From the NCBI RefSeq assembly GCF_000012925.1, contig NC_007517.1:2370001-2402000 (forward strand): a stretch of DNA of 32,000 nt. Reading direction: 5' to 3'. This stretch comes from Geobacter metallireducens GS-15 (lineage in GTDB: Bacteria; Desulfobacterota; Desulfuromonadia; Geobacterales; Geobacteraceae). The position numbers were made by a program, and so were the translations under genes. Under the pieces are notes generated by a model. That model did not search any database. It saw only the letters and a program-made list of their open reading frames with translations, and was not told where the DNA came from. Each line of letters opens with the position of its first letter. The stretch's first letter is position 1. Below, piece by piece: positions 19,537 through 30,129 of this stretch.

Positions 19537-20055
19537 ATGAGTTCCGAAAACAGCACCGGCGCAACGATTCTCCCCTTCAGAACCTCCGATGACGTGGTGG
19601 ACGAGGATCGCAGAGGCTTCGTGAAAAAGATGGCGCTGACGGCCCTCACCGTGGGAGTCGGGGGAGCTGCCATCCAGAGCGCCCGTTTCTTCAAGCCCAA
19701 TGTGCTCTACGAGCCCTCAAAGGCTTTCAAGGTGGGCGAGCTGAGCAAGTTCCCCATCGGAAGCCGCATCGTCATCGAAGGCCGGGGGATCGAGATCGTC
19801 AGAGAACGGGACGGCATGCACGCCATATCCCTTGTCTGCACCCACCTGGGATGCCTCATAAAGCCCGTGGAGAACGACCCCGACACCGGGTACATGTGCC
19901 CCTGCCACGGCTCCACCTTTACCCTTACGGGTGGAGTTCTAGGGGGCCCCGCCCCGAAGGATCTCCCCTGGTACGAGATGTACATGGACAATACCGGGGC
20001 TCTCGTGGTGGACACGTCCAAGGTGAACCACAAACGGACCAAACTCGCAGTCTGA
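19537..20055 (+). CDS. Rieske [2Fe-2S] subunit with twin-arginine signal
   Basis: DRRGFVKKMALTALTVG Tat signal/anchor. CTHLGC and CPCHGS cluster-binding boxes. Confidence 0.9.
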   Translation: MSSENSTGATILPFRTSDDVVDEDRRGFVKKMALTALTVGVGGAAIQSARFFKPNVLYEPSKAFKVGELSKFPIGSRIVIEGRGIEIVRERDGMHAISLVCTHLGCLIKPVENDPDTGYMCPCHGSTFTLTGGVLGGPAPKDLPWYEMYMDNTGALVVDTSKVNHKRTKLAV

Positions 20056-21009: not shown

Positions 21010-21061
21010 ACAGCCGGGCGATCATTGACGCTGGAGAGACTTTCCAATGAGGAGAGAGAGA

Positions 21062-21445
21062 ATGAATCGGAAAACCTCGTTAATAGTGGCGGCAGCACTG
21101 GTCTTCGGGATGCTCTTGCCGGGCTCCGGGGCACTGGCGCAGGAACCGCCGAAAATGCCCTACGTCTTCGCCATGTACTGCGTGATGTGCCACAAGGAAG
21201 GGGTTCAGATCGGCCCCATAGGCATCTACGACATGATGTCGAAGAGCGGCAACCCGTTGCACGAGCAGCTTATCCGCAACAATACCCGCTTCGGCTACAA
21301 CGCCATGCCTGCCTTCAGGATGTCGGAGGTAAGCCCGAAGGAGATGAACGCCATCGTGGCCTACCTGAAGGACGTGGCGGCATACCGCAAGACCCATCCC
21401 GGTTACAAGCCGGTACCGGCGAAGGAAGGAGGGGCCAAAAAATGA
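21062..21445 (+). CDS. pcmG: Monohaem c-type cytochrome, p-cresol methylhydroxylase cytochrome (beta) subunit
   Basis: Sec signal MNRKTSLIVAAALVFGMLLPGSGALA. Single CVMCH. NAMPAF Met-ligand region. Lies immediately upstream of the flavoprotein subunits, as in pchC-pchF. The symbol is from memory of the G. metallireducens cluster. Confidence 0.75.
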   Translation: MNRKTSLIVAAALVFGMLLPGSGALAQEPPKMPYVFAMYCVMCHKEGVQIGPIGIYDMMSKSGNPLHEQLIRNNTRFGYNAMPAFRMSEVSPKEMNAIVAYLKDVAAYRKTHPGYKPVPAKEGGAKK

Positions 21446-21861
21446 TGGAAACGGGAAGAAGAGGGTTTTTCAAGCAGATTTTCACGGCCGTGGCCGCAGT
21501 AGCCGCAACAGGGGCCACAGCAGCCGCCCCCCGCAGGGCCGAGGCCTCCGTGGCGGGACAGATCAAAGGGGTGTGCCTCTACGTCCCGAGCCTTGGCAAA
21601 GCGACTGATTTTGTCGAGATGATGAACAAGAACGCCCCCGGATCCTGGACGGTTCACCCCCTCACCGGATCCCTGAGCGAGCATTACTTCACCACCAGGA
21701 ACCTCTACGAGGAGGCCCGTGGAAGCGCCAACACCTTTGTGGGGGTCGTGGATCCGGCAACCTTTGCCATCGTTCACGAAGCGATCGTCGATTGCGGCGG
21801 CAGCTTCCACTACACCACCTACGAAGACCGGAACCGGGTCACGTTTTCCGCACAGCTGTAA
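21442..21861 (+). CDS. Small protein with twin-arginine signal, unknown function (occupies the position of pchX between the cytochrome and flavoprotein genes)
   Basis: MMETGRRGFFKQIFTAVAAVAATGATAAAPRRAEA is a good Tat signal (RRxFFK, h-region, AxA-like site). ATG 21442 overlaps the upstream TGA (ATGATG). The longer listed ORF from 21025 is a frame overlap with the cytochrome gene. Confidence 0.6.
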   Translation: MMETGRRGFFKQIFTAVAAVAATGATAAAPRRAEASVAGQIKGVCLYVPSLGKATDFVEMMNKNAPGSWTVHPLTGSLSEHYFTTRNLYEEARGSANTFVGVVDPATFAIVHEAIVDCGGSFHYTTYEDRNRVTFSAQL

Positions 21862-21877: not shown

Positions 21878-23473
21878 ATGAGTCGTTTCATTGCACTTCC
21901 CAAAGGAGTGACAGAAGCAGCCTTCGCCAAGGCCATCCAGGAATACCGGGCGCTCCTGGGCGAGGACCGGGTCCGCACCGATCCGGCTTCCCTGCAGTCC
22001 TACATGAAGATCATGATCCCGGAGACCGAGGAACTGCACAAGCCTTCGGCCGCCATGTACCCCAGAACGGTCAAAGAGATCCAGGCCATCGTGGCCATAG
22101 CCAACAAGTACAAGACCCCCCTCTGGACGGTGAGCACCGGCAAGAACATGGGATACGGTTCCGCTGCCCCGGCCACCCGGGGGCAGATCGTCCTCGACCT
22201 GAAGACCATGAAGAAGATCATCCATGTGGATGAGGAGCTGGGGTACTGCCTGGTGGAGCCGGGGGTGACCTACTACGACCTGCAGGAGTACTTCAGGAAG
22301 CACAAGATGAACCTCTGGGTCGATGTCCCCGCCCCCTCGTCCATGGCCAGCCCGATGGGGAACACGGCAGACCGGGGGGTGGGCTACACCCCCTACGGCG
22401 AGCACTTCCTCGTTTCCTGCGGCATGGAGGTGGTCCTGGCCAACGGCGACGTGGTCCGCACCGGCACGGGGGGCGTCCAGAACTCCACCAGCTGGCAGGC
22501 CAGCAAATGGGGCTACGGACCGTATCTCGACGGCATTTTCACCCAGTCCAACTACGGCATCATCACCAAGCTCGGGGTCTGGCTCCTGAAGGGCCCTCCT
22601 CCCGGCGGCTACATGCCGTTTCTCATGAAGTTCCCCAAGGTGGAGATGCTGGGCGACATCGTCAAGACCTTCATGCCCCTGCGCCTGGCCCAGATCATCC
22701 CCAACGCCTGCGTCGTGGTCAACGCCGGCTGGGAGGCGGCCGGCTACTTCACCTACGACAAGAACGGCAAGGGAACCAACCGGAGCAGCTTCTACAAGGG
22801 GAAGGGAAGCCTCCCCCCCAAGGTGTTCCAGGAGATCATGGACAAGTTCAAGATCGGCGCCTGGAACTTCTACGCCGCCCTCTACGGCTCCCCCGAGCAG
22901 GTGGCCCTCAACTGGAAATACGTCTCGGGCGCCTTCAAGGCCAAGTTCGGCAATCAGGTCCAGATCATCACCGAGAAGGAAGCCAAGGACGACCCCATCT
23001 TCGAGTACCGCCGCCAGCTGATGATGGGGGGGAGCACCCTGCAGGAGTTCGGCCTCTACAACTGGCGTGGAGGGGGCGGTTCCATGTGGTTCGCCCCGGT
23101 TGCGGCCGCCAGACCCTCCGAGTGCGACAAGCAGATGAGGGTTGCCACCGACATCCTCAACAAGCACGGCTTCGACTACGTCTCCGAGTTCATTGTGGGG
23201 TGGCGCGAAATGCACCACATCATCGACCTCCTCTACGACCGTACCCAGCCGGACGAGATGCACCGGGCCTACCAGTGCTTCGATGAGTTGTTGAGGGTGT
23301 TTTCCAAGAACGGTTACGGGACCTACCGCACCAACACGGCCTTCATGGAAAAGGCTGCCAACACCTACGGGCCCGAGATGCGGAAGCTTCATCGGACCCT
23401 GAAGAAGGCGCTGGATCCCAACAATATCCTGGCCCCGGGCAAGTCGGGCATCAACCTGGATATTCCCCTGTAG
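21878..23473 (+). CDS. pcmI: p-Cresol methylhydroxylase flavoprotein (alpha) subunit, VAO/PCMH family
   Basis: 531 aa. FAD-binding PCMH-type domain (PSAAMYPRTVKEIQAIVAIANKYKTPLWTVSTGKNMGYGSAAP). GLYNWRGGGGSMWFAPV with Tyr394 (23057-23059). TYRTN Tyr483-Arg484. RBS GAGGAGG. The symbol is from memory. Confidence 0.85.
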   Translation: MSRFIALPKGVTEAAFAKAIQEYRALLGEDRVRTDPASLQSYMKIMIPETEELHKPSAAMYPRTVKEIQAIVAIANKYKTPLWTVSTGKNMGYGSAAPATRGQIVLDLKTMKKIIHVDEELGYCLVEPGVTYYDLQEYFRKHKMNLWVDVPAPSSMASPMGNTADRGVGYTPYGEHFLVSCGMEVVLANGDVVRTGTGGVQNSTSWQASKWGYGPYLDGIFTQSNYGIITKLGVWLLKGPPPGGYMPFLMKFPKVEMLGDIVKTFMPLRLAQIIPNACVVVNAGWEAAGYFTYDKNGKGTNRSSFYKGKGSLPPKVFQEIMDKFKIGAWNFYAALYGSPEQVALNWKYVSGAFKAKFGNQVQIITEKEAKDDPIFEYRRQLMMGGSTLQEFGLYNWRGGGGSMWFAPVAAARPSECDKQMRVATDILNKHGFDYVSEFIVGWREMHHIIDLLYDRTQPDEMHRAYQCFDELLRVFSKNGYGTYRTNTAFMEKAANTYGPEMRKLHRTLKKALDPNNILAPGKSGINLDIPL

Positions 23474-23499: not shown

Positions 23500-25062
23500 A
23501 TGAGTCGTTACCTAGCGCTGCCAAAGGGCGTTACCGAAGCAGCCTTTACCAAAGCGATCACTGAGTATCGCACCCTTCTGGGAGAGGGGCGCGTCCGCAC
23601 CGATCTGGCATCCCTCAGTCCGTACATCGTCAACTCCATTGCCGAAAGCGATTCATTGCACACTCCCTCGGCAGCCATCTACCCGACGACCACCAGGGAA
23701 ATCCAGTCCATTGTCGGCATTGCCAACAAGTACAAGACGCCGCTCTGGACTGTCTGCAACGGGGAAAACGAGGGGTACGGCTCCTCGGCGCCGGCAACCG
23801 CCGGGCAGATAGTGCTCGATCTGCGAAACATGAAGAAGATCATCGAGGTCGATCGGGAGCTGGGCTACTGTCTGGTGGAGCCCGGCGTGACCTATGCCGA
23901 CCTCCAGAACTACCTCACCAGCAACAAGATCAACCTCTGGCTCGATGCTCCGGCACCTTCGGCCAATGTCAGCATCCTCGGCAATATCCTGGAGCGGGGG
24001 AGCGGCTACACCCCCTACAGCGAGGATTTCCTCTTTTCCTGCGGCATGGAGGTGGTGCTGGCCAACGGGACTGTCCTCAAGACCGGCATGGGGGGCATCC
24101 CCAATTCCACCAGCTGGCAGGTCTTCAAGTGGGGGTTCGGCCCCTATGTGGACGGGCTCTTTTCCCAGGGGAACAACGGGATCGTCACCAAGGTCGGCGC
24201 ATGGCTGATGGGAGCACCGCCTCCGGGTGGCTACAAGCCTTTCTGCATCAGGTTCCCCAAGAACGAGATGCTGCCCAACATCATCAAGCCGCTCATGTTC
24301 CTGCGCCAGGCCCAGATCGTTCCCAACGCCTGCGCCCTGGTCAACGCCGGATGGGAAACGGCCACCCGTTTCGCCAATGACCGGAGGAACAACGGCCGTT
24401 TCATCAACACGGCGAACCGGGTCATTCCCGCCAACAAACTGGTCAACCGCAACGTTGGTGCCTGGAATCTCTACGGGGCCGTCTACGGCTCTCCCGAGCA
24501 GGTGGCCCTGAACTGGATGTACGTCTCCGGCACCTTCAAACAGGCCTTCGGTAACAAGATCAGCATCATCACCGAGAATGAGGCCAAGGGGGACCCGGCC
24601 TTCGAGTATCGCAAGCAGCTCATGATGGGGGGGGTCACCAGCCGCAATCCCCTGGACAGCTGGCGCCCCGGCTACGGCTCCATGAAGTTCGCCCCCACGG
24701 CGGCGGCACGGCCGGGCGAATGCGCCCAGCAGGCGAAGGTGGCGGCAGAGATCATCAACCGGCACGGTTTCGACTACCTCAGCGAGTTCAGCTTCTTCTG
24801 GTACGACGCCCGCCACACCGTCGATCTCCGTTTTGACCGCACCAGGCCCGAGGAGATGAAACGGGCCCATGCCTGCTTCAACGAGCTCATCAGCGCCTTC
24901 GCCAAACATGGCTGGGCGGTGGGCCGCACCAACACCGCCTTCATGGACAAGGTGGCCGATTCCTACGGCCCGGCAAAGCAGAGGCTCAACCGCACCATCA
25001 AGAAGGCCCTGGACCCCAACAACATCCTGTCGCCGGGCAAATCAGGGATCACGGCAGGGTAA
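23500..25062 (+). CDS. pcmJ: Second PCMH flavoprotein-type subunit (alpha-prime), divergent at cofactor and substrate residues
   Basis: 520 aa, colinear with 21878-23473 from the first residues (MSRYLALPKGVTEAAF vs MSRFIALPKGVTEAAF). Reads PLDSWRPGYGSMKFAPT and AVGRTN at the two key sites. The symbol is from memory. Confidence 0.85.
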   Translation: MSRYLALPKGVTEAAFTKAITEYRTLLGEGRVRTDLASLSPYIVNSIAESDSLHTPSAAIYPTTTREIQSIVGIANKYKTPLWTVCNGENEGYGSSAPATAGQIVLDLRNMKKIIEVDRELGYCLVEPGVTYADLQNYLTSNKINLWLDAPAPSANVSILGNILERGSGYTPYSEDFLFSCGMEVVLANGTVLKTGMGGIPNSTSWQVFKWGFGPYVDGLFSQGNNGIVTKVGAWLMGAPPPGGYKPFCIRFPKNEMLPNIIKPLMFLRQAQIVPNACALVNAGWETATRFANDRRNNGRFINTANRVIPANKLVNRNVGAWNLYGAVYGSPEQVALNWMYVSGTFKQAFGNKISIITENEAKGDPAFEYRKQLMMGGVTSRNPLDSWRPGYGSMKFAPTAAARPGECAQQAKVAAEIINRHGFDYLSEFSFFWYDARHTVDLRFDRTRPEEMKRAHACFNELISAFAKHGWAVGRTNTAFMDKVADSYGPAKQRLNRTIKKALDPNNILSPGKSGITAG

Positions 25063-29928: not shown

Positions 29929-30129
29929 ATGTTTGGATTCGGCATGCCGGAAATCATCATTCTGCTGGTCATCGCGCTCGTGGTCTTCGGACCGGCAAAG
30001 CTTCCCCAACTGGGCTCGGCATTGGGGGGGGCCATCAGAAACTTCCGAAAAGGGACGGAAGAGCCGACGGTTGTAAATCGCCAGAACAAAGAAAATCATG
30101 AAACCGCCGAAAGACACGAAAAAATCTAA
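29929..30129 (+). CDS. tatA: Twin-arginine translocase subunit TatA/E
   Basis: MFGFGMPEIIILLVIALVVFGPAKLPQLGSALGGAIRNFRKG is the canonical TatA TM helix, hinge (FGP) and amphipathic helix. RBS GAGGGAGG upstream. Confidence 0.85.
   Translation: MFGFGMPEIIILLVIALVVFGPAKLPQLGSALGGAIRNFRKGTEEPTVVNRQNKENHETAERHEKI

Follow-up and report, generated by a model that had tools for sequence, protein, structure and literature searches.

A small twin-arginine-signal gene between cytochrome and flavoprotein in the p-cresol cluster of Geobacter metallireducens: PcmH as a PchX-family protein and candidate export escort

Results

Gene layout around pcmH

The window analysed here is the whole 32,000-nucleotide stretch from positions 2,370,001 to 2,402,000 of a 4,011,182-bp genome in two contigs; we take it to be the pcm cluster of Geobacter metallireducens GS-15, in which the gene at 21442-21861 would be pcmH (reportedly described by Peters et al. 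2007). It encodes a split cytochrome b, a Rieske protein, a tetrahaem and a monohaem cytochrome c, two flavoproteins of the p-cresol methylhydroxylase (PCMH) type, a MetA-type outer-membrane channel, a short-chain dehydrogenase/reductase, an aldehyde dehydrogenase, a TatA, a MarR regulator and a 4-hydroxybenzoyl-CoA-reductase-like enzyme, a content that agrees with the pcm (p-cresol) cluster of this strain outlined in PMC1924859. Our subject is pcmH, a short gene between those of the cytochrome and flavoprotein subunits, which we consider as a candidate carrier of the flavoprotein through the twin-arginine translocation (Tat) pathway. This escort role had been put forward in an earlier reading of the nucleotide sequence alone (the sequence-only reading). 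The features on which the argument draws are the following.

21442..21861, + strand: pcmH, 139-aa precursor, predicted minimal PchX-family member and candidate Tat escort (open frame, homologues, adjacency to pcmI)
21442..21546, + strand: predicted twin-arginine signal peptide of PcmH, residues 1-35 (TGRRGFFK, Ala/Thr/Gly-rich h-region, PRR c-region, AEA)
21547..21858, + strand: mature domain of PcmH, about 104 aa, alpha/beta in the predicted structure (core FVGVVDPATFAIVHEAI, C-terminal strand RVTFSAQL)
21047..21445, + strand: pcmG, monohaem cytochrome c subunit with a general secretory (Sec)-type signal (PF13442/PF00034)
21878..23473, + strand: pcmI, PCMH alpha flavoprotein without signal peptide, presumed cargo (PF01565 and PF02913)
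23500..25062, + strand: pcmJ, alpha-prime paralogue, likewise signal-less, presumed co-cargo (PF01565 and PF02913)
29929..30129, + strand: tatA paralogue encoded in the cluster (PF02416, 65.9 bits; TIGR01411, 64.4 bits)
19537..20055, + strand: Rieske iron-sulfur protein, DRRGFVKK in a signal anchor of the Tat type; second Tat client of the cluster

The pcmH start overlaps the upstream stop, as the sequence-only reading had described: the ATG (21442-21444) shares ATGA with the TGA of pcmG (21443-21445). A strong Shine-Dalgarno sequence, GGAAGGAGGGG, lies 8 nt upstream of this start. From the TAA of pcmH to the start of pcmI there are 16 nt, and pcmI has its own GAGGAGG.

Export signals of the enzyme subunits

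The two flavoproteins begin with MSRFIALPKGVTEAAF (PcmI) and MSRYLALPKGVTEAAF (PcmJ), and in both a conserved LPKGV motif lies five residues in. Residue 6 of PcmI aligns with residue 8 of the crystallised Pseudomonas putida PchF chain 1DII_A (E 2e-187), therefore there is no room for a signal peptide. The same was found across the type, where none of 79 PchF-type flavoproteins carries a signal peptide and the starts lie 0-19 residues before LPxGV. Among pcmG, pcmH, pcmI and pcmJ, a Tat signal is found on pcmH only; PcmG has a signal of the Sec type, strongly hydrophobic (Kyte-Doolittle 2.83), and both flavoproteins have none. This distribution of signals is the one claimed in the sequence-only reading, and the N-termini together with the alignment to 1DII_A uphold it.

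PcmH is read from a stop-free frame of 139 aa, with the N-terminus MMETGRRGFFKQIF (MMETGRRGFFK), an Ala/Thr/Gly-rich stretch and PRRAEA before S36. The maximal 12-aa Kyte-Doolittle mean of its h-region is 1.91, against 2.83 in PcmG. A (T/Q)GRRxFFK motif, a weaker h-region and a basic c-region are features of Tat-type signals, and motif, moderate h-region, basic c-region and AxA site are all present in PcmH. In 22 PcmH relatives the motif reads (T/Q)GRRxFFK, with a basic residue just before AxA in 16 of them; RRxFF and AxA are kept among the homologues, and the two arginines are retained in all 117 full-length homologues (55-93% identity). Since so many homologues keep the arginine pair, the motif is more than a chance occurrence, and the near-consensus twin-arginine signal that had been read from TGRRGFFK stands. 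The N-terminus of PcmG, MRRERMNRK (window 21047-21076), also holds two arginines and is easily mis-scored as a Tat signal; it has no Tat-like context and is followed by a strongly hydrophobic, Sec-type core.

Profile models of Tat signals are short and respond weakly. At E up to 1, matches to the Tat-signal hidden Markov models were obtained for 11 of the 22 PcmH members and 11 of 32 PchX-like proteins, with the proteins of loci L008 and L042 scoring above the cut-off.

The periplasm is the expected location of the flavoprotein, because its partner is a c-type cytochrome. The P. putida PCMH is described as periplasmic by Hopper et al. 1985, as cited in a passage of the preprint 10.1101/2025.09.08.674859.

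Fold and relatives of PcmH

A word-indexed search returned the 117 full-length relatives mentioned above, all of about 138 aa, whose best database name is 'twin-arginine translocation pathway signal protein'. The mature part of PcmH matches no Pfam model (E up to 0.01) and no NCBIfam model. A profile of PcmH relatives run against 1.84 billion representative proteins found just two clusters, so that the PcmH type proper is confined to Geobacter-like bacteria; a tblastn search of plasmids with PcmH gave no match.

In the AlphaFold2 model the mature part is a compact alpha/beta domain with the topology beta-alpha-beta-alpha-beta-alpha-beta-beta, with a predicted local distance difference test (pLDDT) score above 90 over most of residues 40-139, and residues 1-36 are disordered (below 50). 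Foldseek found nothing in the PDB at E up to 1e-3. A wide VIA-align search gave a best Z of 7.3, to generic alpha/beta halves, a level common for unrelated models. The sequence profile of PcmH had no match in the PDB, the ESM Atlas gave no usable match, and the PcmH/PchX alignments contain no conserved cofactor-binding motif.

The sequence-only reading had recognised no family in the mature part, which holds for Pfam and NCBIfam. It does not hold beyond them: sequence comparison places PcmH, as a remote and minimal member, in the PchX family, which is uncharacterised, lacks a database model and has its Pseudomonas members labelled 'PchX' in public database sources. An hhalign comparison of a PcmH profile with a PchX-type profile gave a probability of 91.6% (E 8.4e-7, 81 columns). 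A strict jackhmmer search started from a mature P. putida-type PchX (L057) against all 2616 open reading frames (ORFs) of the sampled loci returned 69 matches with no off-target one among them: each is encoded next to and upstream of a flavoprotein gene, and the six Geobacter-type proteins are all represented. When the Geobacter-type sequences were left out of the PchX profile, it still found these proteins at E 5.8e-6 (L065), 3.1e-4 (L017) and 1.1e-3 (PcmH of the window) among 2617 sequences. In the opposite direction, strict jackhmmer from PcmH alone stays within the Geobacter type, and neither single-sequence nor PcmH-profile searches reach PchX, so the homology is a remote one. A lenient jackhmmer run on a 73-sequence database linked everything and was set aside as too permissive.

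Across a joint alignment of 32 diverse family members, nothing but the two arginines is invariant. The members have in common a core vGLxDxAsxxL...aG, mostly with a His after it, and, at the C-terminus, a strand of the (F/Y)VSF type; the counterparts in PcmH are GRRGFFK for the signal, FVGVVDPATFAIV for the core and RVTFSAQL for the strand. The variable middle insert is missing from the minimal forms, PcmH and a Phaeospirillum protein of 126 aa. Because PcmH is the shortest family form, the comparison suggests that the N-terminal alpha/beta domain together with the C-terminal strand makes up the functional core.

At the other extreme of length stand the PchX-like proteins of the nitrifiers Nitrosomonas, Nitrosospira and Nitrospira (L030:3068-3982, L052:2937-3977, L036:2878-3969), with 290-363 aa and a large extra middle region that has conserved Cys and His positions; these ammonia and nitrite oxidisers thus retain operons for PCMH-type flavocytochromes. 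In Halomonas, ORFs of about 195 aa with a Tat motif occupy the PchX position (L073:3358-3948, L088:3360-3947, L092:3361-3948) and are unrecognised by the PchX profile. They may have diverged very far from the rest of PchX, or belong to another, unrelated family with the same task.

Synteny and co-occurrence with the flavoprotein gene

Eighty PchF-type loci were sampled from one-genome-per-species contigs and 13 from plasmids. Under a strict rule, by which an ORF with a Tat motif must end at the flavoprotein start, 63 of 77 PchF-type loci carry such an ORF, against a background of 5% (82/1648) for the other ORFs of at least 100 aa in the same loci; the motif can be seen by eye in 'misses' of the rule at L023, L028, L049, L062, L086 and L090. 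Altogether, a Tat-signal ORF of the same family abuts a signal-less flavoprotein gene in about 70 of the 80 genomic loci and in most distant plasmid loci examined. These ORFs encode 126-363 aa with an RRx(L/F)LKG-type motif, stop short of the flavoprotein start by 13 nt in the median, and occur in Pseudomonas, Halomonas, Nitrosomonas/Nitrosospira, Nitrospira, Rhodocyclales, Comamonadaceae, Campylobacterales and others. The sequence-only reading had suggested looking for homologues beside pchF-like genes, with pchX as an example; they are present across many phyla, and the Pseudomonas members are the ones named PchX in database sources.

The usual order is cytochrome c, Tat ORF, flavoprotein. 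Writing X for the Tat ORF, C for the cytochrome and F for the flavoprotein, variant orders are X-C-F in Novosphingobium and Steroidobacteraceae, X-F-C in Paraburkholderia, Roseomonas and N. pentaromativorans, and F-X in Caballeronia (loci L007:3216-3590, L082, L044, L058, L084; L012, L096, L098; L094:4539-4985). None of these rearrangements takes the Tat ORF out of the module. As negative controls, one Rhodococcus locus and a GlcF-linked Rhizobium locus, both lacking a cytochrome partner, have no such Tat ORF.

Within the order to which the window belongs, a PcmH profile and PcmI identify one identical set of 24 among 239 genomes, and each of the 32 pcmH copies found there lies directly upstream of a pcmI-like gene, none occurring apart from pcmI. 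Several genomes carry two or three complete pcmH-pcmI modules, namely G013 (C50, C52, C40), G016, G156, G181, G189, G073 and G014, and in such genomes each pcmH adjoins its own flavoprotein gene. Because these genomes are kin rather than independent cases and operon genes travel together, the co-occurrence goes no further than to establish pcmH as an integral component of the module.

The cluster tatA and the Rieske protein

Two further Tat-related genes had been claimed for the cluster, a tatA and a Tat-dependent Rieske protein. Both were recovered, the first by its matches to two TatA models and the second by DRRGFVKK followed by a hydrophobic anchor. The genome has four TatA/B/E paralogues, including the cluster tatA, and a single tatC. 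In three of five relatives checked, representing two genera, a tatA is found on the pcmH strand, 9.4-9.8 kb downstream of that gene (G064:C1:3473304-3473432, G075:C1:421914-422042, G076:C1:134809-134931), and over the window and these three relatives the distance from pcmH to tatA is 8.5-9.8 kb. Of the other two, G203 has its tatA 21 kb from pcmH on the opposite strand and G141 has none on that contig.

Discussion

A candidate route for the flavoprotein

The cytochrome subunit must pass through Sec to receive its haem in the periplasm, and the flavoprotein binds flavin adenine dinucleotide (FAD) and folds in the cytoplasm. Kim et al. in 1995 reportedly saw covalent flavinylation of the flavoprotein only after cytochrome binding. 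Because it folds with FAD in the cytoplasm and is flavinylated after cytochrome binding, the flavoprotein must cross the membrane folded and without a signal of its own. Taking this together with the signals, the conservation of the arginine pair, the homology to PchX, the synteny, the co-occurrence and the kept position of tatA described above, and with the precedent of a Burkholderia dehydrogenase compared below, our best reading, which the comparisons support well, is that pcmH probably encodes a dedicated Tat hitch-hiker carrier of the p-cresol methylhydroxylase flavoprotein.

The process would run as follows. PcmI, holding its FAD non-covalently, and the FAD-less PcmJ, both of them signal-less, would fold in the cytoplasm, where the alpha/beta domain of about 100 aa of pre-PcmH would bind the folded flavoprotein. 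The twin-arginine signal of PcmH would then lead the whole complex to TatBC and across the membrane, perhaps aided by the TatA of the cluster, with signal cleavage predicted at AEA. In the periplasm the flavoprotein would meet PcmG, matured by Sec and by the cytochrome c maturation (Ccm) system, and binding reportedly triggers covalent flavinylation. PcmH would finally be released or loosely retained; release is the outcome to expect if, as is reported, purified PCMH holds only alpha, alpha-prime and beta subunits.

A wider proposal is more tentative, and we rate it at slightly under an even chance: PchX and PcmH would form a distinct, unnamed family of dedicated and released Tat escorts, rather than subunits of the completed enzyme, that carry folded flavoproteins of the vanillyl-alcohol oxidase (VAO)/PCMH type into the periplasm, the 100-aa Geobacter form being the minimal module, which would serve an active/inactive (alpha/alpha-prime) heterodimer together with a cluster-dedicated TatA.

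Weighing the carrier against other roles

Several points weigh against a carrier role. The binding of PcmH to the flavoprotein and their export together are steps that we infer. Neither P. putida PCMH in its crystals (1DII, 1WVE) nor purified Geobacter PCMH is reported to contain PchX or PcmH, which would therefore need to come off their cargo; most known hitch-hiker carriers do not. Inheritance of the operon as a unit would be enough to yield the co-occurrence of pcmH and pcmI, and the Rieske protein could be the client of the local tatA and by itself account for that gene. The Tat-signal models are weak on PcmH, which scores 10.6 bits with TIGR01409, below the cut-off of 16.7; PF10518 is a second such short model. 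One PcmI-like gene, L019:4001-5581 (= G073:C60:2142-3722; 79% identity), has no upstream pcmH; in the 4 kb upstream of it there is neither a Tat ORF nor a cytochrome c, and the same genome has two other pcmH copies. As weak evidence on the same side, no natural PchX-PchF fusions were found among the searched representative proteins. A single stop codon is all that interrupts a common reading frame through pcmH and pcmI in several relatives, and a read-through fusion was folded (L100, table 6, alignment A6), with a mean pLDDT of 43.7 and a predicted template modelling score of 0.28. With 24 close flavoprotein sequences the alignment was too shallow, so that the PcmH domain folded (block-mean pLDDT 72-92) and the flavoprotein part did not, and the model is silent on the interface.

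PcmH might instead be a Tat-exported periplasmic accessory, an assembly or stabilising factor or a loose third subunit, with the flavoprotein exported by another route. Such a protein would show equally tight synteny and co-occurrence; PcmH is predicted with confidence to fold as an independent small domain, and it is reportedly not seen in the purified enzyme. However, no other export route is visible for flavoproteins that are signal-less, since the other signal among the genes of the enzyme is the Sec signal of PcmG and Sec threads one unfolded chain at a time. The family signal is, moreover, far better conserved than the mature part, which fits a targeting role over a catalytic or structural one, and we consider the accessory unlikely. 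On a different view, PcmH would have no link to the enzyme beyond a common operon and would be a small periplasmic Tat substrate such as a ligand-binding or regulatory protein for phenolics. The best structural matches of PcmH, weak as they are, are halves of periplasmic binding proteins (Z about 7); yet that Z is common for unrelated models, a binding protein needs more than about 100 aa, and there is no conserved ligand or cofactor motif. The adjacency to the flavoprotein gene also survives the changes of gene order (X-C-F, X-F-C, F-X), which leaves this view very improbable.

The genes of a bc-type complex immediately upstream, and the membrane-bound state of Geobacter PCMH reported by Peters 2007 and Johannes 2008, would be accounted for if PcmH were a Geobacter-specific adaptor tethering PCMH to the membrane or to the Rieske/cytochrome b complex. 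The family is, however, widespread in organisms whose fetched flanks show no bc-type genes (Pseudomonas, Nitrosomonas, Halomonas and others), the conserved AxA cleavage motif means that a membrane anchor is not expected, and PcmH is the shortest form of the family rather than an elaborated one. We regard the adaptor, too, as very improbable.

Significance

Since the 1980s PCMH has served as a textbook example of a periplasmic flavocytochrome, and early Tat reviews are said to have remarked on the signal-less PchF. In the searchable literature we found no account of how the signal-less, FAD-loaded PCMH subunit is exported, of the role of pchX, or of the escort idea. The 2025 preprint 10.1101/2025.09.08.674859 assumes that the Sec signal of the cytochrome 'guides' the complex, and the neighbouring Tat-signal gene goes unmentioned in it. 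What is added here is that the short Geobacter form is tied to PchX, that pcmH and pcmI co-occur throughout the order, that the tatA of the cluster is conserved, and that a minimal core can be defined.

If dedicated carriage by PcmH and PchX is true, a new protein family joins the short list of Tat hitch-hiker systems, perhaps with the rare property of a carrier shed after export, and a gene of hundreds of aromatic-degradation operons is explained. To express PCMH-type biocatalysts (the hydroxylases of cresol, eugenol, ethylphenol and bisphenol F) in the periplasm, one would then have to co-express pchX. The Geobacter version, the smallest form and one with its own tatA, would be a convenient test case.

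Comparison with known systems

The closest likeness is to PchX of the P. putida pchC-pchX-pchF operon. Like PcmH, PchX is encoded between or beside the genes of the cytochrome and the signal-less flavoprotein, and both proteins have an N-terminal twin-arginine motif, the core vGLxDxAsxxLxxxxxxxG and a C-terminal VSF/VTF strand. They differ in length (139 aa in PcmH, about 230 aa in PchX), as PcmH lacks the variable middle insert, and their identity is about 15-20%. PcmH, unlike PchX, would serve an alpha/alpha-prime pair, and its cluster has its own tatA and a bc-type complex.

In the FAD-glucose dehydrogenase of Burkholderia cepacia, a small gamma subunit bears a Tat signal, the FAD subunit is signal-less and the haem c subunit depends on Sec; the gamma subunit has been called a hitchhiker protein of the Tat system (PMC6719666). 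The PcmH system shares this three-part logic. The fold differs, the gamma subunit consisting of five helices (PMC6719666) and the PcmH model being alpha/beta. So does the cargo, which is of the glucose-methanol-choline (GMC) type in FAD-glucose dehydrogenase and of the VAO/PCMH type for PcmH; gamma stays in the final complex, and PchX and PcmH apparently do not. No sequence relationship links PcmH with gamma, as PcmH has no Pfam match at E up to 0.01, PF12318, the model for the small subunit of FAD-SLDH and its relatives, included. Among 32 PchX-like proteins a single one gave a weak match to PF12318 (E 0.0019), most likely caused by the signal peptide.

MelC1 of the Streptomyces tyrosinase is a small 'caddie' with a Tat signal that escorts a signal-less cofactor enzyme and is then released, and it provides a precedent for a carrier outside the final enzyme of the kind proposed for PcmH. 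It is unrelated to PcmH in sequence, with matches at chance level in 2 of 22 PcmH members (E 0.15), and, unlike PcmH, it is a copper chaperone in a Gram-positive secretion setting. In the hitch-hiking of [NiFe]-hydrogenases (small subunits HybO/HyaA) and of the DmsA type, one subunit has the Tat signal and takes with it a folded partner that has none. Those carriers bear cofactors and are catalytic or electron-transferring, whereas PcmH has no cofactor motif. The mechanism proposed for PcmH is of a known kind; the PchX family is unrelated to the known carriers in sequence and in predicted fold, and it may differ from them in being shed once its cargo has been delivered.

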